Positions 1,594-12,538 are shown, counted from the stretch's first letter. The stretch: 15,460 nt of DNA from Methanomicrobiales archaeon (GCA_037137755.1 JBAXJR010000049.1:1-15460), one strand, 5' to 3'. A program made the numbers and translations. The notes: generated by a model not told the origin, from the letters alone.

Positions 1594-2757
1594 ATGTCGG
1601 AAACTACATATTCCACAGAAGAATGTAGTTTAGACGCCCTGGAAAATGACCGGATCCGGTCCAACGCCTATGTCGCTTTTTTCACCCAAAAGACGCAGGC
1701 TGATGCAAACCGGTTTATTTACGGCATCCAGGGCAACGGTCTCTCCCCTTCGAATCCCGGTCCGCTCATTGATGCGAGGATGGAACTTTCTGAAAAGGGG
1801 TACATTCACCGGATGAATGAGGGGTTGAGAAATGTCCCGTTCCGATCTTCCGTGGACCCGATTATCAATTCAATTCGGACCGATATCGAACGGAGCGGGT
1901 CGTATTTTGATCTCGACAGCGAATCGGGCAGGGCCAGTATGGAGGCCCTGGCAAAGGTACTGGACTCCGAATGGTTCAGACAATTCTTCTCGTATCATGC
2001 TATCCACAATCCCTGGCCCGGGAAACAAAAGGGAGAGTATTATTCCGGGTATGCCGGCCTAAGGCTCACCCCATATGAATTTGCGGATAAAACCTACAAT
2101 GCGGTGGAAATCTGGTATATCAAGAAACTGTTTCTTGAATTGATTGCCGAGATCGGGACCTACAGTTATTATCTGAACTCCTTTTTCGAGAAAAATGCTG
2201 ATGTTCTTGAAAGCTTTGGCTACCGTTCAGTCCGTCCGGAAGAACTTGTTGCAGCACGATCGTTTGATGACTTTTATGCCGGCGAGATGACCCGGTTCTG
2301 CCGCTGCTGGGTTGATGATTTTTACAAGCATGTAAGTGCAGACGAGAAACTCATCAAATCGTTTGTGACCGCTGTCGTTCCCATATTTGACGTCCCGAAA
2401 GAACTTCACCGCAGGAGCAAACGAAAAACGCCCGCACCTATGGCAGATATGGAAGTCTGCAGGAGCGAAATATGCGAGATGAAAATGTCGCTCGATTCAC
2501 CGCCAAGACCAAGGAAGACGAAATTCCAGAAGACAAGGAAGAACCCCCCGTTCGATGTTTCCCCCGTTACGAGTGCGGATATTTCAATACCGGCTGGTTT
2601 TATCGAGCGGATCAAGTACCAGTCTGCATGCATTCCGACCCCGGTTGCCGGCATCATGCGGATGAGTTATCCACAACTACCAAAAGGGATTGGAGAGCGA
2701 TGCATCTATGCTGAATGCCAGCTGAATAAGCAGATTCTGGGGATGGATGGGAAGTAG
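1594..2757 (+). CDS. Hypothetical protein, 387 aa; possible N-terminal winged helix
   Basis: Long open frame. Start re-called to ATG 1594 (MSETTYS) because the TTG at 1459 overlaps the RHH gene. A diverged copy of its 3' end at 10337-10610 differs by many synonymous changes, which supports coding. Confidence 0.85.
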   Translation: MSETTYSTEECSLDALENDRIRSNAYVAFFTQKTQADANRFIYGIQGNGLSPSNPGPLIDARMELSEKGYIHRMNEGLRNVPFRSSVDPIINSIRTDIERSGSYFDLDSESGRASMEALAKVLDSEWFRQFFSYHAIHNPWPGKQKGEYYSGYAGLRLTPYEFADKTYNAVEIWYIKKLFLELIAEIGTYSYYLNSFFEKNADVLESFGYRSVRPEELVAARSFDDFYAGEMTRFCRCWVDDFYKHVSADEKLIKSFVTAVVPIFDVPKELHRRSKRKTPAPMADMEVCRSEICEMKMSLDSPPRPRKTKFQKTRKNPPFDVSPVTSADISIPAGFIERIKYQSACIPTPVAGIMRMSYPQLPKGIGERCIYAECQLNKQILGMDGK

Positions 2758-2788
2758 GAATTCTAATTTAATAAAATGGGGTGAATGA

Positions 2789-5359: not shown

Positions 5360-5938
5360 ATGAGATCCATTATTCTGACATTAGCCATCCTGGCACTGGT
5401 CCTTGCTATGGCCGGGGCCGGATGTACTACGACGAATCCTGTGGCCACCACTCCAACCGCAACATCCACCCCGTCTCCGACTGCCATACCGACACCCGCC
5501 GTGGCGGTGAAGCCCACGGCAAACATGTCTGCCGATCAGCAGCGGGTATTCGCGTTTGTCTCAGAGGGGGTCGTATACGGCCGTGAACACGGGAGGCAGG
5601 CGTCGCTCGCTGAATTCAATAACCCGAACGGCTCTTTCGTCCGGGGAGACCTGTTTATATTCGCAGGTGATTACAACGGGACATCCCTCGCATCCATTGC
5701 CCTGCCCCAGCGGGTGAATACGTCTTTCAACAATGATGTCGATGTGACCGGCCAGTATTACATGCGCAACAAGGTCAACCTCTCACGGAGCGGCGGCGGG
5801 TTCATCACCATCTATTTCCCGAATCCAGCCCATAACTTCACGCCAGAACCGAAGCTCTGCTACGTGCACGATGTTGATGGGACCTACTGGATTGGGGCAG
5901 GCATGTATAACCAGTCAAACGTGACGGCCCGTCCGTGA
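5360..5938 (+). CDS. Lipoprotein with a single Cache (sCache_2-like) ligand-binding domain
   Basis: Signal peptide with AGAGC lipobox and Pro/Thr linker. The domain EFNNPNGSFVRGDLFIFA.DYNG...GGGFITIYFPNP...PKLCYV..VDGTYWIGAGMY is typical of single Cache domains. Confidence 0.88.
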   Translation: MRSIILTLAILALVLAMAGAGCTTTNPVATTPTATSTPSPTAIPTPAVAVKPTANMSADQQRVFAFVSEGVVYGREHGRQASLAEFNNPNGSFVRGDLFIFAGDYNGTSLASIALPQRVNTSFNNDVDVTGQYYMRNKVNLSRSGGGFITIYFPNPAHNFTPEPKLCYVHDVDGTYWIGAGMYNQSNVTARP

Positions 5939-6108: not shown

Positions 6109-6240
6109 GTTGTTTGAATAAACCCCTGGAACACATCCGGGCCTATGATGAAACCCGGACGTGACCCTGGAATCTGGGGGGATTCGAAAAGCGGGGACCG
6201 GGTGACGTTTTGGAACCGGAAGATTTCCAATCGCTGTATT

Positions 6241-6275
6241 GATTGGCAGGAATTCCGGGGATTACTCTGCCAATC
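6241..6275 (-). terminator. Stem-loop 3' of the small peptide gene at 6286-6435
   Basis: GATTGGCAG...CTGCCAATC 9-bp stem, 10 nt past the stop codon. Confidence 0.45.
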
Positions 6276-6285
6276 CAACCGATCT

Positions 6286-6435
6286 TCAACGCGGGACAGG
6301 TGTATTCATTGGAGCATGAAGTACTACCTGCCTGATCGGGATTTCCACACCAAAATACCATGCAACCGCAATAATTGTTCCAGCCAGCGAAAGTATCAAC
6401 GAAAAAATAAGAAGAGATTTCAAAGCATCATCCAT
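6286..6435 (-). CDS. Small single-TM 'HAPxN' precursor-like peptide, 49 aa (not in ORF track)
   Basis: Translates to MDDALKSLLIFSLILSLAGTIIAVAWYFGVEIPIRQVVLHAPMNTPVPR*. GAGGT RBS upstream. Paralogous to 6704-6853 and 9509-9703. Confidence 0.9.
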   Translation of the reverse strand: MDDALKSLLIFSLILSLAGTIIAVAWYFGVEIPIRQVVLHAPMNTPVPR

Positions 6436-6703
6436 TTTCAATACCTCTGATGAAGTATGTGAATCAAATCATTAAAAAGACTCTGTTTTGTAAAAAACAA
6501 AGGTATTATTTTCAAACTAATTCTGACAGGCCCACCAGGCCCGGTCTGTACAGGACCCCGACACCGGGTTCGGGGCACCGGATAGTACCTACCTGAGAAC
6601 TCCTTACTCTTTGTTACGATACTCCGGCACTGCCTGAAACCGTGCAAAGGGTGAGCCTCCAGAAGGTACGGGCAGATAAGACCCGTGGTACGGTGCATAT
6701 ACT

Positions 6704-6853
6704 TCAATACGGGATAGGTGAATTCACCGGGGCATGAAGTACTACCTGCCTGATCGGGATTTCCACACCAAAATACCATGCAACCGCAATAATTGTTCCA
6801 GCCAGCGAGAGTATCAACGAAAAAATAAGAAGAGATTTTAAAGCATCATCCAT
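6704..6853 (-). CDS. Small single-TM 'HAPxN' precursor-like peptide, 49 aa (not in ORF track)
   Basis: Translates to MDDALKSLLIFSLILSLAGTIIAVAWYFGVEIPIRQVVLHAPVNSPIPY*. GAGGT RBS upstream. Confidence 0.9.
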   Translation of the reverse strand: MDDALKSLLIFSLILSLAGTIIAVAWYFGVEIPIRQVVLHAPVNSPIPY

Positions 6854-7037
6854 TTTCAATACCTCTGATGAAGTATGTTAATCAAATCATTAAAAAAGAC
6901 TCTGTTTTGTAAAAACAAGGGTATTATTTCAACCTTATTCTGACTGCCTGAAACTGTGCAAAAGGTGAACCTGCCGAAGGCACGGGCAGGTAAGACCCGT
7001 GATGCGGTGCTTATTCTTCCCGGGAACACCTTCTTGT

Positions 7038-9170
7038 TTATGGACTTAAAAATTTCATGACCGGCACATTGAGATCCCCGAAATTCTGCGTATTGAGCAT
7101 CTTCACGTGCGATCCTGTCACTCTCTCGTACGTGGTAGTATAAAGGTCCCGGAAGGTAATTCCGGGATCTGCCTGGACCGTGATCAGGACGACTTCGGTA
7201 AACTCATCTGACAGCCACTGTTTGATATCAGGATCGTAAACGGCCCCAAAGGACGGTTCAACGCGGTTGGCCCCGGTGAAATATAAAAGTCCCTTTGCAG
7301 TAATATTCTCCGCGATACTCTCACCAAAGCAGGTATCCACGAAAAAAACTATCTGCCGGTATTTTCCTTCACTTGACATGGTGTTCGTGATGCGGGTGAA
7401 TTCCCCGGTCTTGATCGATGAGTCCGGGAGGGGAAAAACGATATTCCCGGGAAGGCCATGACCTGCAATGTAGACAAATATATCTGTGCTGGAATTGCCC
7501 GGAATGACGAGCGGGGTCTCCCGGGTTTTATTCCCGGTAAGGACATTTATAAATGTTTCAGGAGTCACATTCCGGCCATCATAATCTACTTCGGCACCGG
7601 GACGGAGGTTCGGCCCTTGGGGCAGGTTATGGACATTGCCCTGGAGCGGGTTCTCCCGTACAGAGGGGATATCATCGTAGAGCATGAGGATGATGTGGTC
7701 ATCGGGAACACCGTTTCGCCGCAGAAGCGTGTATACCGCGAGTGCATCGGATTCATGCCGGTAGTTATCCCAGCCCTGTGACGGTCCGGCGATAATTGCC
7801 CAGAAACCCGTCCGGTTCAGGGGGGGGACATACGCTCCCCCGGAAGGTAAGGGCTCCATGAGGCTGGAAGATGCCCCGGAAAGGGCAATTGGCTTACCGG
7901 CTTTTGTTGAAGTCCCACCCTTTGCAGAGTTCAGGACCTCAACGGTATGGTAGGTACCGTTCTCTATGATCCAGTGCGAGTAGGATGTGAGCAACGGGTC
8001 AACCCCGGATACCGGGTCGAAGTCGAGCGGGCCGCTCGCACCGGTTACGGCCGGGCTCTGCCCCCTCTGGATCGCCAGGATCGTATTATGGGGACCCTGC
8101 AAATTCCAGCTTTCGTGGGTCCCGTTACCGTCAACAACGTGCCGGATTGAATCTGCAGGCGATTCAAACGGACTGGTGTCCTGCCTGGCCGATGTGTAGG
8201 CAGCGAGCAGGAGTGCATCATAGGCCGGGGCTGCATAATCGGTGGGAGCATGCCCGAATTTTGCCTGGTATGCGGCCGTAAAGCCGCTTGACGGGTCTGA
8301 TGTCGGCGATGTCCCTTCGAGCCCTTCCGCATCCGGCCCGAGGGAACTGACCAGGGCCGGCGTGGCAGCATCATCGATTAAGAATAGTTTTGCCGGTTTT
8401 CCGGAGCGGTTCATGGCCCTTTTGATCCTGGCTGCATCGGACGGGCCTGAGGCTGCGATAATATAGTCAGGGTTTGTACTGAGTGCACTGGCAACATCCT
8501 CGTCAAGGGTACCCGAACCCGGGTCGAACTGCCGGACATATGTGAGATCGATTCCGGATTCTGTTGCAAAGAAACCGGTCCACTCGTAGAATGTATCGCC
8601 GTAGGTAGAATTCTCGGCAAGGAGTGCCACCCGTCCGGCCCCCTTCGCAAGTAAAACCGAAACGATAACCTTTACCTGAGCTACATCTCCCTGGGCTGTC
8701 CGCCAGAAATAACCTTTCCCTCCGAAGGCCCGGATGATATCGCCAGAGGTCGCAAGGGGGCTGATAAGGAGTTTATGCTTCCGGATAAATGCCGGTGCAA
8801 GGGAATAGACATCATCGCTGGTCGGGGGGCCGATTACCGTCCTGATGGAATCATCCGCGAGCAGTTCTTCGCCAAGCTGCTTCGTATTGCCGGAATTAGT
8901 ATCTTTGTACACGAGTTCGATCGGTCTTCCACCGATCCCTCCCTGTTGGTTGATGGTGTCTTTTGCCCATTCAAGAGGCTCTTTAAGTTCTACATCGCCA
9001 GTCAGGGGCAGGAGGACGCCGATCCGGACCGGCGTATGTGAATGGAAGATGGTGTAGCCAACCCAGGCTCCTGTTACAAGAATTACTATGATCACTACGA
9101 TGAGCCCTGCCTTTTTTTTCGAAAAAATCGCGATCACCCGAGGAGCTGTACCGGACCAAAATGACCCCAT
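7038..9170 (-). CDS. Membrane-anchored fusion of a type I (Leu/Ile/Val-like) substrate-binding domain and peptidase C13 (legumain/GPI8 family)
   Basis: KKK plus TM anchor. PBP part: RIGVLLPLTG...INQQGGIGGRPIELVYKD, VIGP.TS, YDA.LL. C13 part: WDNYRHESD, GVPDDHIILMLYDD, VDY.G..VT, YIAGHG (catalytic His) and VDTC (catalytic Cys). Start re-called to ATG 9170. Confidence 0.93.
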   Translation of the reverse strand: MGSFWSGTAPRVIAIFSKKKAGLIVVIIVILVTGAWVGYTIFHSHTPVRIGVLLPLTGDVELKEPLEWAKDTINQQGGIGGRPIELVYKDTNSGNTKQLGEELLADDSIRTVIGPPTSDDVYSLAPAFIRKHKLLISPLATSGDIIRAFGGKGYFWRTAQGDVAQVKVIVSVLLAKGAGRVALLAENSTYGDTFYEWTGFFATESGIDLTYVRQFDPGSGTLDEDVASALSTNPDYIIAASGPSDAARIKRAMNRSGKPAKLFLIDDAATPALVSSLGPDAEGLEGTSPTSDPSSGFTAAYQAKFGHAPTDYAAPAYDALLLAAYTSARQDTSPFESPADSIRHVVDGNGTHESWNLQGPHNTILAIQRGQSPAVTGASGPLDFDPVSGVDPLLTSYSHWIIENGTYHTVEVLNSAKGGTSTKAGKPIALSGASSSLMEPLPSGGAYVPPLNRTGFWAIIAGPSQGWDNYRHESDALAVYTLLRRNGVPDDHIILMLYDDIPSVRENPLQGNVHNLPQGPNLRPGAEVDYDGRNVTPETFINVLTGNKTRETPLVIPGNSSTDIFVYIAGHGLPGNIVFPLPDSSIKTGEFTRITNTMSSEGKYRQIVFFVDTCFGESIAENITAKGLLYFTGANRVEPSFGAVYDPDIKQWLSDEFTEVVLITVQADPGITFRDLYTTTYERVTGSHVKMLNTQNFGDLNVPVMKFLSP

Positions 9171-9474
9171 GGTGAAATCACGTTTTACAGGGTAGCCGTT
9201 ACATCCAGCCCGTGAGGAGAGGTGGTATGATCTCAAAGATAAGGATTTGTATCCGCTGACTGGCCAGTATTGACACTTTTGTTTAAAATGCCACAATGCT
9301 CAGGGGTCGTTGTGGACTCACCCTTTAGGTTTGGCAAGGCCGGGAGTGGGGGTTAACGGTGAGCCGGGGCCGATCAGGAGCATATATCCATTTCCGGTAG
9401 CGGATGCCGGTGCCGGTTTCATGCCATGGGCGTTGCATCCGCGGCAATACATGGATTATTAAATGTGCCTGATC

Positions 9475-9500
9475 AAAAAAAAGTCCGGATCTTTCCGGTC
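9475..9500 (-). terminator. Hairpin plus U-tract terminator after the 64-aa peptide gene
   Basis: Minus strand reads CCGGA-aaga-TCCGG-ac-TTTTTTTT, starting just after the stop at 9509. Confidence 0.6.
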
Positions 9501-9508
9501 ATTTACTG

Positions 9509-9703
9509 TTAATATAAGTTATACGGGTTCGCTCCTGATCCGGGATTTGGTTTATTCATGGGCGCGTGAAGCACTGCTGCCTGAAGGGCCGGAAGATCCA
9601 CGGCGAAATACCATGCGAGTGCGATGATTGTGCCGATTATTGCCAGTGCAATAACGAATATGACGAGATTTTTCAGTGCGTCGGATTGTTGAGTTTCGGA
9701 CAT
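9509..9703 (-). CDS. Small single-TM 'HAPxN' precursor-like peptide, 64 aa
   Basis: MSETQQSDALKNLVIFVIALAIIGTIIALAWYFAVDLPALQAAVLHAPMNKPNPGSGANPYNLY. AAGGT RBS and a TATAAG box at about 9741-9746. Shares DALK, GTIIA.AWYF and LHAPxN with the two 49-aa ORFs. Confidence 0.9.
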   Translation of the reverse strand: MSETQQSDALKNLVIFVIALAIIGTIIALAWYFAVDLPALQAAVLHAPMNKPNPGSGANPYNLY

Positions 9704-9829: not shown

Positions 9830-10350
9830 GACAGGTGAAGCGCTACCTTGAGATCAGGAACAATGCGGTGTTTCTCTCCGGCAATGGCCTGCTTGTGACC
9901 GATCCTCCAGCAGGCCTTTAAAAATTCGATTTCCGTGCAGGATGTCCATGGATTCTTAAAAGACTATGGAGGGGCGAGATCGAAGATTCCCCTTGAACAC
10001 AATCTCGGGTGTATGATGAGGCACAGCGGGCCTGGGATGCCGAACGGGTGATAAGAAAAGCGGGGACCAGGCGACGTCAGAACCGGAGGATTTCTTCAAA
10101 CTTGCGGAACGGATGAATTCCTGGGCGTTAATGGTTGCGTTGATTGGTGAGGGTCAGGAGATTCATCTTGGCGAGGAATCCGGGTTGGCACAATGGAATG
10201 ATGTGTTATCGGTGATGCAGAAACCGTGGACGTGTTCAATAGCCCGGAGAAGATTACCGATGTTTTTACGAAGGCCGGGAAACGGGAGAAGAATAACGTT
10301 CTGGACCTTTCCATCACCCTCCGGTCCCCTCTCGCCGAAGATGTCGCTCG
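9830..10350 (+). pseudogene. Internal fragment of a DUF2075-like (SF1 helicase-related) gene with multiple frameshifts
   Basis: Stitched reading: AVFLSGNG.LV / ILQQAFKNS..VQDVHGFLKDYGG / VYDEAQRAWDAERV / SEPEDF..LAERMNSWALMVALIGEGQEIHLGEESGLAQW / LDLSITLRS.LAEDVA. No Walker A motif and no credible start. Ends are approximate. Confidence 0.75.
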
Positions 10351-10610
10351 AAATCCTCGATTCCAAGGAAGACTAAATCCCAGGAAGCCAGGAAGAATCC
10401 CCCATATCCAGCCCCATCTGTGACAAGTCTAGATATCTCCATCCAACCGGGTCTCATTGAAAGGTCAAATACCAGTCGGCATGCATTCCACTCCCTGTTG
10501 CCGGCATTATGCGGTTGAGTTATCTCCAGCTGCCAAAGGGGACTGTGGAGCTGTGCATCTATGCGGAATGTCAGCTAAGCAAGCAGATTTTGGAGAGGGA
10601 TGGGAAGTAA
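10337..10610 (+). pseudogene. Diverged, frameshifted remnant of the 3' end of the 1594-2757 gene
   Basis: Reads KMSL...PRKTKSQEARKNPP...VTSLDISI..GLIER / KYQSACIPLPVAGIMRLSYLQLPKGTVELCIYAECQLSKQILERDGK*. The last 47 aa are 38/47 identical to the C-terminus of 1594-2757. Confidence 0.92.
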
Positions 10611-10708
10611 GGAAAAGGGAGGCATTGTGCTATATGTAATACTCTCATGTTAGATTTTAAGTGAAAAATATCCGGATAAAAAAATTGACCCTTTTCCCAC
10701 TCTGGGTT

Positions 10709-11896
10709 TCATGCAATTTCTAATATTGCTATTGTTCTACCGTTACTTTTTAATTGAGAACGATTATTTTCAAGATGTTTTTCCATTCGCATTACTTGTT
10801 GTGGAGAAAAAAACTGATCAAGTGGGAAACACGTCCAATAACTCATAATATTATTTCTGACGTCCCGATTAATCGGGATCCATGCTTTTCCATCCTTTGC
10901 ATCGACCTGAACAAATTTGTCTGTTGAGCACGCATTATAACCCCAAATCAACGGAAATCCAAGCCATAGATCAATTGGTGTATCAGTGACATCATAGGAA
11001 TCCCCATCAAATTCATTGAGATATTTTTGGCCAAGTAGTTGCTCAGCTTTCATTTTAGTTGCAAGGAGTTCGGCCTCTGTAACCCCATTCATTTTATTTA
11101 AATTACTCTTTAATAGTGGTAAATATAGAGGATTTCTTTTTATTCCAGTCTTATCTTTCAATTCGGCCATTTCTGCTAAACTACCAGCAAAACTTGCAAA
11201 AGTATGATTTAAACTCATAAAATGACCAAATTCATGTGTTAATTGAGAATCCCCCAACCCATAGTTTTCTCCATCTGAAATTATCGGACTCTGCCGGTAT
11301 GGGTTTAATATAATTAAGGGAGAATCTAGTGCCGTATATGACTGCCCAGCTGGGCTATCCGGATACTTTCCACCCCCCCATCGATATAATAACACCACTC
11401 TGTGGTAAAAATCCTTATTTGTAGGATCATCTACTCGTTTTTGGATTTCTTTTCTAATAGCATCATTATCAGCTTCTTTTCCACCATCTAAGGTATTCAT
11501 CGCATCATTATTCTCAAATACATACCTGATATCCTGGTTATCTAACCCAAAATTACAACCAGCACTTTCTAGTTGACGATTTGCAAGATTTATCCAATCT
11601 TTTATAAAATTATCATCAAGGGTTGGATGTCGTGTTAAACTTCTTAAGTAGGGTGTTTTTGGAATCACCTTTCCGTTTACAATTTCATACAGAGGTTGTG
11701 ATCCGTCTTTTTTAGAAGTTAATATCACAGTCACTTTTAATAGAACCGCACTCCAGGTTCTTTTAGATCCTTTATCAAGAAGTTTGCGTAAAGAAATTGG
11801 TTGTTCATAATTCGACACTTTATCTGCAAGTTTACGTATACTCACCGATGGGCCACTTAATCCGCAGAAGGATGCCACTTGTCGTAAGGTTTTCAT
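10709..11896 (-). CDS. Metzincin zinc metalloprotease, M43 (pappalysin/ulilysin-like)
   Basis: HEFGHFMSLNHTF zinc motif, D.VTDTP, NNIMSY Met-turn and FSPQQVMRM. Start re-called to ATG 11896 (GGAG RBS). AT-rich, with no obvious signal peptide. Confidence 0.88.
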   Translation of the reverse strand: MKTLRQVASFCGLSGPSVSIRKLADKVSNYEQPISLRKLLDKGSKRTWSAVLLKVTVILTSKKDGSQPLYEIVNGKVIPKTPYLRSLTRHPTLDDNFIKDWINLANRQLESAGCNFGLDNQDIRYVFENNDAMNTLDGGKEADNDAIRKEIQKRVDDPTNKDFYHRVVLLYRWGGGKYPDSPAGQSYTALDSPLIILNPYRQSPIISDGENYGLGDSQLTHEFGHFMSLNHTFASFAGSLAEMAELKDKTGIKRNPLYLPLLKSNLNKMNGVTEAELLATKMKAEQLLGQKYLNEFDGDSYDVTDTPIDLWLGFPLIWGYNACSTDKFVQVDAKDGKAWIPINRDVRNNIMSYWTCFPLDQFFSPQQVMRMEKHLENNRSQLKSNGRTIAILEIA

Positions 11897-11955
11897 AAAG
11901 GTTATTCTCCAACGTTGTTTCCAGTCCCGATTCTGAATTATATTCCACAATTTAC

Positions 11956-12276
11956 CTATTTGGGAGGATTTTTTATTGGATGGATAGCCTGTTTCTCCAA
12001 TTTCTCTATCCTATCCTGAAGAGACTTAATTTCATTATAAACACTCATCAGAATGACATTTGATCCAATCGCTGGAACCTTTTGTTCGAATAAAATGTCA
12101 GCGCCTTCAATTTTCACAATCCTCAATGGATCCTGATTGGGTGTATCATGAACCACTAGTGAACCTTTAATACTCACAGGAAATTTTGCATCATTATTAC
12201 AAACATCTGAAACGTTCAAAATGCCATTTACATTAACGGCGTTGTCGTCGAGTGTTATATCTGTCATTAATCTCAT
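11956..12276 (-). CDS. Hypothetical protein, beta-rich N-terminus and C-terminal coiled coil
   Basis: 106-aa ORF (alternative ATG at 12267) ending EIKSLQDRIEKLEKQ. Co-oriented just upstream of the M43 gene, with the same AT-rich composition. Confidence 0.7.
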   Translation of the reverse strand: MRLMTDITLDDNAVNVNGILNVSDVCNNDAKFPVSIKGSLVVHDTPNQDPLRIVKIEGADILFEQKVPAIGSNVILMSVYNEIKSLQDRIEKLEKQAIHPIKNPPK

Positions 12277-12538
12277 GTCCTGATTAGTATTCCATCAGGG
12301 CAGACAAACCAGAAAAAGAGTGAAACATATATGTATATTCAATCCAACCCCCCTCTGAATTGCATTACCCACAAGTCACTAATCAATTTGATTTACTATT
12401 GAATACTTGATAATAATTCCTATTTTCTATTTAGGAATATCCTCTTTTTGGATTCGGCAGGTATGCTCAGCATCGATCCCTAATATGGAGGATGTGATTT
12501 CCTTATAAAATGTGAAGACGAATATGAAAAATCTAGTT

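Follow-up and report, generated by a model that had tools for sequence, protein, structure and literature searches.

We analysed a stretch of 15,460 nucleotides from a Methanomicrobiales archaeon (GCA_037137755.1, JBAXJR010000049.1:1-15460), hereafter called the window, and concentrated on its positions 6286-9703, where three small genes surround one large gene, all of them on the minus strand. The large gene encodes a fusion of an N-terminal transmembrane (TM) helix, a type I periplasmic-binding-protein (PBP) domain and a legumain-type peptidase domain of family C13, a combination referred to below as PBP-C13. A preliminary description of the locus, made from the DNA alone, had proposed such a membrane-anchored fusion among three co-oriented small genes, each encoding a Lys-preceded TM helix, a short stalk, the motif LHAP(M/V)N and a differing tail. 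The listing of open reading frames (ORFs) bears out both the arrangement, with the coordinates given below, and the anatomy of the three small proteins, which have VLHAP(M/V)N in common. The reading we favour, to which we assign a probability of roughly 55%, is that the small proteins are precursors with the N-terminus inside and the C-terminus outside the cell (N-in/C-out), and that the extracellular legumain domain would cleave them behind the Asn and thereby set their tails free; this reading is drawn from sequence analysis. The features of the locus are as follows (aa, amino acids).

6286-6441, minus strand: candidate precursor gene, 51 aa from a TTG, probably 49 aa from an ATG at 6435; tail TPVPR
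6304-6312, minus strand: P-M-N codons of the TPVPR-tail precursor
6704-6859, minus strand: candidate precursor gene, 51 aa from a TTG, probably 49 aa from an ATG at 6853; tail SPIPY
6722-6730, minus strand: P-V-N codons of the SPIPY-tail precursor
7038-9170, minus strand: PBP-C13 fusion, 710 aa from an ATG at 9170, the likely start; the frame stays open as far as a TTG at 9296 (752 codons, 7038-9296)
7065-7802, minus strand: Peptidase_C13 (legumain) domain (Pfam PF01650, E=1.1e-50)
7458-7460 (His) and 7329-7331 (Cys), minus strand: catalytic codons of the C13 domain
7758-7760 (Arg), 7755-7757 (His), 7251-7253 (Ser) and 7206-7208 (Asp), minus strand: S1-pocket codons of the C13 domain
8199-9032, minus strand: type I PBP domain (Peripla_BP_6/LivJ-like; Pfam PF13458, E=2.5e-31)
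9045-9110, minus strand: N-terminal TM helix of the fusion (AGLIVV...YTIF), 22 residues, preceded by KKK; topology predicted
9509-9703, minus strand: candidate precursor gene, 64 aa, with N-terminus, K-flanked TM helix, stalk DLPALQAAVLHAPMN and 14-aa tail KPNPGSGANPYNLY
9554-9562, minus strand: P-M-N codons of the 64-aa precursor, proposed as P3-P1 of the predicted cleavage site

The genes at 6286-6441 and 6704-6859 form a 418-bp tandem duplication, with an identity of 95% over 195 nt in one comparison and 93.5% over 245 nt in another. In both copies a Shine-Dalgarno-like GAGGT lies 7 nt 5' of the in-frame ATG (6435 and 6853), so that 49-aa products are probable for both 51-aa frames, and a terminator-like hairpin with a run of eight T (T8) is found 3' of the 64-aa gene. 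Four differences between the tandem copies fall in leader codons and are all synonymous third-position changes; five further ones fall in the last seven codons and alter four residues. The tails of the three window members are free of Cys and 5-14 aa long. A contig from an RNA library spans 6247-6416, that is, most of the TPVPR-tail gene, and contigs from two RNA libraries of one sample span 7515-7896, 8105-8342 and 8444-8944 inside the PBP-C13 gene; this is no proof of transcription in either case, as DNA may be present in such libraries, and stretches without such cover are uninformative.

Homologues of the PBP-C13 protein align with it from about residue 48 onward. The C13 domain matches PF01650 over residues 499-744 with a score of 173 bits (cut-off 22.8), covering positions 2-252 of the 258 in the profile, and the PBP domain matches PF13458 over residues 89-366 and, in the PDB, branched-chain amino-acid binding proteins with E-values down to 7.8e-12. 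The alignment of the C13 domain with mammalian legumain comprises 253 residues (E=2e-37), and plant legumains, peptide asparaginyl ligases and GPI8 (E about 1e-26) come next in the list of matches. The motifs GHG and DTC align with the catalytic dyad of legumain, His148 and Cys189 (H571 and C614 in the fusion; chain offset +24), and R471, H472, S640 and D655 align with Arg44, His45, Ser216 and Asp231 of human legumain, the residues that, according to the accessible portion of PMC4357240, create its Asn-specific S1 pocket. The PBP-C13 homologues compared, 15 of 15, all keep these six residues unchanged, even those with an identity of only 32%. The alignment with legumain ends at residue 750 of 752, and the fusion thus has no C-terminal extension or LSAM-type prodomain; apart from this prodomain and the eukaryotic activation peptide, every sequence-level feature of C13 peptidases and legumains that we checked is present. 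No ABC transporter domain, be it the permease or the ATPase partner of a PBP, was detected in the 15 window ORFs scanned, and none recurs in related loci.

A six-frame scan of the genome to which the window belongs (2.64 Mb in 106 contigs) recovered exactly five members of the small-protein family. All five adjoin a PBP-C13 gene or a truncated copy of it, three of them in the window and two on another contig (C52), one on either side of what is left there of the C13 gene, a C-terminal piece of 113 aa. The copy on C52 (7360-8620) is about 90% identical to the cassette in the window; it has lost the equivalent of window positions 7451-9297 but keeps both flanking precursor genes intact, and in the long precursor an indel has given the tail another sequence (…KPNPWAGAD). 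C52 might have been a strain variant of the window, but a single metagenome contig carries the two copies (L057 and L060), and they are therefore treated as paralogues.

A small-protein family with a conservation break after an asparagine

A profile of the five small proteins, searched against 301 genomes of the order, found matches in 38 genomes, with up to 17 per genome and with tandem arrays among them, mostly in one taxonomic family (33 of its 120 genomes) and in the genus g4 (24 of 49 genomes). The public protein collection holds 56 close relatives, all annotated as 'hypothetical' and none with a Pfam domain, the named ones coming from Methanoregula or from metagenome-assembled genomes of Methanomicrobiales. 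A broader profile (A2), built from 69 diverse members and run against 1.84 billion representatives of clusters at 50% identity, gave 479 matches at E<=1e-3, of which 284 reach E<=1e-10. ORFs as short as those in the window, two of the three lying inside a tandem repeat, might be taken for chance reading frames in intergenic DNA or in the repeat, but the number of profile matches, the exclusively synonymous changes in the leader codons, the ratio of non-synonymous to synonymous differences (pN/pS) below 1 (see below) and the signals for translation and termination mentioned above make this so improbable that we reject it; the small ORFs are real genes. No family in Pfam, NCBIfam or the ESM Atlas corresponds to them: matches in the ESM Atlas, at 0.80-0.81, are inside the range that shuffled sequences reach, and an NCBIfam match to the E492 microcin (E=0.055), which scores 14 bits where the cut-off is 50, is noise.

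The members have a common layout, in which a short N-terminus is followed by one TM helix, a conserved stalk, a near-invariant P-x-N and then a variable tail; the best 150 of the 479 cluster representatives are 46-182 aa long. Two types of leader can be told apart. The first, which includes the window genes, begins ...QQSDALKNLVIF and is mostly followed by short tails, and the second begins ...SPLARLVLFMICL and has tails of 30-75 aa, the stalk Y(Y/F)AVDLPxQQ...P-x-N being common to both. Degenerate or 'leader-only' members, which could be pseudogenes, decoys or regulators, were seen directly beside C13 genes at three loci (L046 6608-6751, L047 6700-6840 and L040 8586-8744).

P-x-N stands at the expected place in 119 of 128 unique precursors, and the column entropy, which amounts to 1.7-2.2 bits at positions -9 to -3 and 0.22 at the Pro, is 3.5-4.0 bits from position +1 on. 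Since the Asn itself had been used for anchoring in this calculation, a second hidden Markov model was built from the leader only and stopped four residues short of the Asn, two short of the Pro. It matches 150 of 150 representatives (the best 150 of 479), and P-x-N follows within the next nine residues in 145 of them. The Asn is thus conserved in homologues, with conservation lost immediately behind it, so that the first of the two computational outcomes by which the preliminary description could have been refuted, an Asn that is not conserved, was not seen. A strict Asn exactly at the border of conserved and hypervariable parts is what one would expect of a processing site.

The tails are 2-75 aa long (median 38) and consist of Cys to 11.7%, against 0.8% in the leaders. 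The number of Cys residues is even in 139 of 145 tails (none in 25, two in 10, four in 19, six in 56, eight in 25 and ten in 4), and in our own judgement such hypervariable tails, with several Cys in even number behind a conserved leader, resemble secreted mini-proteins. In 51 close pairs of equal length, which are not independent of each other, pN/pS comes to 0.29 for the leader and to 0.41 for the core. The cores thus appear to be maintained among orthologues under purifying selection, and diversifying selection on them, which we had considered, is not seen among such pairs; the tails of paralogues differ wholesale and by indels.

Across 198 sequences, the combined share of Lys and Arg is 10.9% in the N-terminal flank and 2.4% in the stalk. 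The hydrophobic stretch of about 22 residues is followed by a stalk of 15-19 residues in which, by inspection, Pro stands at -3 and Asn at -1. From this charge bias of the small proteins and from the KKK before the helix of the enzyme, both partners are predicted to be N-in/C-out; the topology put forward in the preliminary description thereby gains support while remaining a prediction. On this topology the stalk and tail of the small proteins, like the PBP and C13 domains of the enzyme, would be located outside the cell.

Association of the small genes with PBP-C13 genes

Matches to PF01650 occur in 58 of the 301 genomes, 47 of which have the PBP-C13 type of about 700 aa. This type is present in all 24 genomes with at least two peptide matches, and in 26 of the 29 genomes with a peptide match at E<=1e-5. 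Within the genus g4, both genes occur in 20 genomes, the peptide only in 4, the enzyme only in 4 and neither in 21 (Fisher p=2.6e-6, the genomes being related); within the genus g1, both occur in three genomes and neither in four, with no discordant case. The two are also neighbours more often than expected: a peptide gene lies within 6 kb of a C13 domain in 12 of the 26 genomes having both, against an expectation of 0.81, with the co-localised genomes spanning two taxonomic families and the arrangement being tandem downstream, upstream, divergent or convergent. The small genes thus both co-occur and co-localise with C13 genes, so that a lack of co-occurrence, the second outcome named beforehand as a refutation, was not seen either. 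In a separate set of 80 metagenome loci, chosen by the peptide alone, a C13 domain is found in 14, with none among the 29 loci shorter than 2.5 kb, 3 of 11 and 5 of 16 in the next two size classes and 6 of 24 among the loci of at least 9 kb; the chance of meeting a C13 domain in a window of +/-8 kb is, by a rough estimate, below 1%. Identical sizes and sources (5547, 3106, 5551 and 3985 nt) appear in the lists of peptide and of PBP-C13 matches, an unconfirmed hint at further shared contigs.

Neighbouring genes were compared in two sets, the first comprising 22 DNA stretches (20 loci, the window and contig C52) and the second the 80 metagenome loci. In the first set no protein-coding neighbour other than PBP-C13 recurs, and PBP-C13 is also the most frequent real neighbour in the second, in which the top cluster (18 loci) was discarded, consisting of antisense frames that overlap the peptide genes. 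No exporter, maturase or second protease recurs near the peptide genes in either set. Likewise, no radical SAM, LanM/LanB, YcaO or RRE protein was found among the recurrent neighbours of both sets, where only recurrent clusters were annotated and rare ones could escape. Of the architecture first likened to that of peptides made on the ribosome and modified after translation (RiPPs), the conserved leader and the variable core have thus been retained, and the part that would call for a modifying enzyme has not.

Other genes are seen near the peptide genes in some loci. A histidine kinase with the domains CHASE4, HAMP and PAS lies near peptide genes in 8 of the 80 metagenome loci and in one genome, G139 (L090 5468-7540, L128 8306-10102, L132 12683-14536 and L048 9678-11846, and further in L094, L136, L109, L085 and L092), the order in L090 being kinase, peptide, C13. 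CHASE4 genes number two to eight per genome, and none is near peptides in the window's genome (G000), G252, G243 or G248; the association is suggestive but inconsistent, and the kinase is not counted as part of the system. Adjoining the cassette at window 5360-5938 (plus strand), and duplicated with it on C52 (9211-9789, plus strand), is a gene for a 192-aa protein whose N-terminus resembles that of a lipoprotein and which has a linker rich in Thr and Pro and one Cache domain (sCache_2). Proteins with multiple sCache domains are encoded near peptide genes in genome G232 and in 4 of the 80 metagenome loci, and three sCache stretches each are present in L047 5159-6568 and L134 4514-5986; the Cache protein may be a sensor connected with the system. 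A Bmp/PnrA-type ABC substrate-binding protein directly adjoins PBP-C13 in five of the six loci of its cluster (L074, L076, L080, L081 and L114, for example L114 1296-2462), the sixth, L075, being without a C13 match. In the genera g13 and g6, which have PBP-C13 and no peptides, the enzyme gene overlaps or abuts a gene for a stand-alone PBP (Peripla_BP_6) paralogue (L053 6747-8174, L054 6365-7615 and L055 4697-6262).

In the window, a 32-nt direct repeat with 84% identity (6177-6208 and 10046-10077) brackets the whole peptide/C13 cassette, window 10337-10614 resembles window 2481-2760 (74%), and window 9371-9495 matches contig C27 (87%); all of these may mark boundaries of duplication or mobility. 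Farther on, the stretch 10500-12500 has a low GC content (0.36-0.38, against 0.46-0.58 nearby) and may have been acquired horizontally. It contains a 106-aa ORF and a 413-aa ORF (10709-11950, minus strand), the latter with only a short match to a zinc-metallopeptidase (M43) motif.

A proposed release mechanism and its alternatives

In the mechanism that we propose, the small genes would encode single-pass N-in/C-out membrane proteins serving as precursors of secreted peptides. Their conserved part would be a membrane-tethered leader, composed of a short cytoplasmic N-terminus, the TM helix and, outside the cell, a stalk some 15-19 residues long with P-x-N at its end, and their variable C-terminal tail would be the product. 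The PBP-C13 protein would be anchored in the same way, with its PBP and C13 domains outside the cell, and the C13 domain would cleave the stalk on the C-terminal side of the invariant Asn, which would take the P1 position while the invariant Pro would take P3. The tails set free would be TPVPR, SPIPY and KPNPGSGANPYNLY in the present case, and multi-Cys mini-proteins of 30-75 aa in most relatives. One enzyme would serve several precursor genes, some of them adjacent and some scattered in the genome; if the model holds, the scattered genes imply that it must act in trans. The released peptides might act outside the cell in cell-cell signalling or antagonism, and the PBP domain, for which we can offer a guess, might recognise the leader stalk or gate the protease.

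Several observations weigh against this reading. Some tails have only 1-3 residues and are hard to see as a product, and of the degenerate copies located directly beside a C13 gene, that in L040 lacks the Asn and those in L046 and L047 stop just before it. Such tails and 'leader-only' copies would fit a role of the leader itself, and with it an explanation without any cleavage, according to which the small proteins are permanent single-pass proteins that display a variable ectodomain (as a receptor, adhesin, immunity protein or recognition tag) or are subunits or regulators of PBP-C13, P-x-N being a hinge, a docking site or a pseudo-substrate motif. The stronger constraint on the leader than on the tail, evident from the pN/pS values, is in line with this explanation as well. 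The predicted complex between a small protein and PBP-C13 agrees with stable binding as well as with binding of a substrate: its score is 0.42 (0.42, 0.52 and 0.06 in individual runs), against 0.00 for the best of three controls, with a contact agreement of at least 64% and values of the predicted local distance difference test (pLDDT) of at least 61 for the partner. The mark applied to such predictions is reached by 58 of 80 solved complexes and by 2 of 110 mismatched pairs, counts that hold only roughly here, as we used our own alignments. At scores of 0.60 or less, only 7 of those 80 solved complexes pass, together with both passing mismatches, so that a pass in this range is wrong in more cases than not, unless the association is already likely. 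The prediction thus weakly favours an association of the two proteins, and we have counted its weakness against release. Permanent display nevertheless seems unlikely to us: a pure hinge would not need an invariant Asn, the Asn occurs strictly at the boundary between conserved and hypervariable parts and next to an enzyme with an intact Asn-specific S1 pocket, and the even-Cys hypervariable tails, as we judge them, look like mini-proteins made for secretion.

Further points against release by PBP-C13 concern the linkage of the two genes. In the DNA examined, 66 of the 80 peptide loci are without a C13 domain, including 29 of the 40 loci of at least 5 kb, and 20 of the 47 genomes with the PBP-C13 of about 700 aa give no peptide match. 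The latter include genomes of the genera g13 (nine), g6 (three) and g22 (three), whose enzymes are only about 32% identical to that of the window, plus three of g4. In five enzyme-only genomes the A2 profile found nothing in four and one weak match in the fifth, and in the four enzyme-only loci inspected the enzyme gene has no small ORF resembling the peptide genes next to it; the enzyme-only genomes mean that the PBP-C13 family is wider than the peptide family. Three of the 29 peptide-bearing genomes (G023, G214 and G288) are without PBP-C13, and the p-values overstate the case, related genomes not being independent. These exceptions on both sides would be expected if the precursors were cut by signal peptidase, a rhomboid-type protease or an unknown protease, with PBP-C13 acting on other substrates and its linkage with the peptide genes reflecting shared regulation or a role at the cell surface; the layout of the leader, with n-, h- and c-regions like those of a long signal sequence, would also be in accord with this. 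However, no other protease gene and no transporter gene recurs beside the peptide genes, and the multi-copy genomes have PBP-C13 without exception. Type I signal peptidase follows a small-x-small rule at -3/-1, with which the Pro at -3 and the Asn at -1 would, by inspection, not agree. Human legumain, in turn, prefers the motif X-P/A/V/E-A/T/D/S-N-C/G-R/K (according to the accessible part of PMC13052201), with which the residues of the family (P3 Pro, P2 A/M/T, P1 Asn, P1' S/G) appear compatible. We accordingly rate cleavage by a different protease as quite unlikely.

Two properties of the enzyme complete the case against release: the fusion is without a legumain-type C-terminal prodomain, and hydrolysis by legumain is dominant at acidic pH, with transpeptidation near neutral pH (PMC13052201, accessible part), although an extracellular archaeal enzyme may behave differently. 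The activity near neutral pH, which comprises ligation too, lends itself to the idea that an acyl-enzyme formed on the Asn transfers the membrane-anchored leader to an amine, perhaps a PBP-bound one, or cyclises the cores, and one may speculate that the PBP fusion could supply the nucleophile. But the Asn is N-terminal to the variable part, so that the acyl-enzyme would carry the leader instead of the core; the C-termini of the tails offer neither a conserved Asn/Asp nor a recognition tail by which head-to-tail cyclisation could proceed; and no acceptor was identified. Cyclisation of the 64-aa member via an internal Asn was also considered and then dropped, its tail not being conserved among close relatives. 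A C13 domain working mainly as a transpeptidase is thus very improbable, and we found no support for the ligation half of what had been proposed for this locus.

Release by hydrolysis after the Asn, the reading we prefer, can be extended to the family as a whole: Methanoregula-type methanogens may possess a hitherto unrecognised system for secreting peptides, in which hundreds of hypervariable, mostly multi-Cys tethered peptides are freed at the cell surface by a dedicated legumain with a PBP module for recognition or gating. To this wider proposal, which is tentative, we give somewhat less than even odds. While surveying the literature, we found no assigned function for prokaryotic C13 peptidases (a full-text search for 'bacterial', 'prokaryotic' and 'archaeal legumain' returned no paper with any of these terms), nor did we come across an account of methanogens secreting such peptides as signals or toxins. 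An archaeocin preprint (10.64898/2026.07.27.741052) does not mention such a system as far as a search for terms in its accessible text can tell, a review of RiPP leader proteases (PMC10885120) brings up asparaginyl endopeptidase, in its accessible part, only in one plant reference, and the Crp system of Methanococcus voltae is, from the accessible part of PMC13692751, a different, radical-SAM one.

If the proposal is true, this would be the first function assigned to an archaeal C13 peptidase, and a peptide arsenal or peptide signalling system would have been defined genetically in methanogens for the first time, the nearby CHASE4 or Cache sensors being possible receptors. A family that is now 'hypothetical', with its 479 matches, would become a defined class of peptides that archaea secrete and whose cleavage site can be predicted, and cell-cell communication or antagonism of methanogens would be directly testable with synthetic peptides. 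An anaerobe would also have provided a compact, membrane-anchored, Asn-specific protease, possibly a ligase.

Comparison with known systems

With the legumains (MEROPS C13), which comprise mammalian legumain, the vacuolar processing enzymes of plants and butelase-type ligases, PBP-C13 shares the dyad, the S1 pocket and the profile match. It differs from them in being archaeal, in its N-terminal TM anchor, in its fusion behind a type I PBP domain and in having no LSAM-type prodomain; it is presumed to act at the cell surface and not in an acidic vacuole or lysosome, and its proposed substrates would be dedicated, genetically linked mini-precursors.

The glycosylphosphatidylinositol (GPI) transamidase, whose subunit GPI8/PIGK is also a C13 peptidase, and the sortases and archaeosortases are similar to the present case in that a membrane-embedded signal stands beside a cleavage site. 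Their substrates, however, have the order mature protein, site, TM helix, whereas here the TM helix is N-terminal and is followed by the site and a C-terminal variable tail. With this order the membrane anchor would be the leaving leader and the C-terminal peptide the part released, in contrast to what a C-terminal sorting signal would do.

Bacterial leader/core precursors (those of class II bacteriocins, RiPPs and Phr-type peptides) have, like the small proteins, a conserved leader and a hypervariable core, genes in multiple and often tandem copies, and a linked protease gene. In the present family, by contrast, the leader holds a full TM helix, the boundary is P-x-N and not GG or a Sec/AxA site, and the linked protease is of the legumain type; no leader end of the GG/GA kind typical of class II bacteriocins is present, and no C39-ABC exporter or other ABC exporter, RRE, radical-SAM, LanM or YcaO-type gene or Rap/RNPP receptor recurs near the peptide genes.

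The Agr system of staphylococci consists of the AgrD precursor, the membrane cysteine peptidase AgrB and the sensor kinase AgrC. It is comparable to our system in pairing a small membrane-associated precursor with a membrane cysteine peptidase, to which the CHASE4 kinase found in some of the loci may be added; the two systems have no sequence relationship, the association with the kinase is inconsistent, and the small proteins have no evident thiolactone-forming motif. Cys-rich secreted mini-proteins with conserved pre/pro regions are known from conotoxin- and defensin-like families and from halocin C8 in haloarchaea. The likeness here lies in the conserved targeting or pro region, the hypervariable mature part with an even number of Cys and the expanded gene families, whereas the small proteins match no Pfam or NCBIfam family, the tails in the window are devoid of Cys, and the formation of extracellular disulfides is uncertain in hosts that are strictly anaerobic methanogens.

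As far as their sequences allow us to judge, the small proteins would thus behave as leader/core precursors, yet would belong neither to the RiPPs nor to the double-glycine bacteriocins nor to proteins with C-terminal sorting signals, and they have no counterpart among curated families. Their nearest functional analogues may be the pro-peptides processed by legumains in plants and animals, and the precursor/protease pairs of bacteria.

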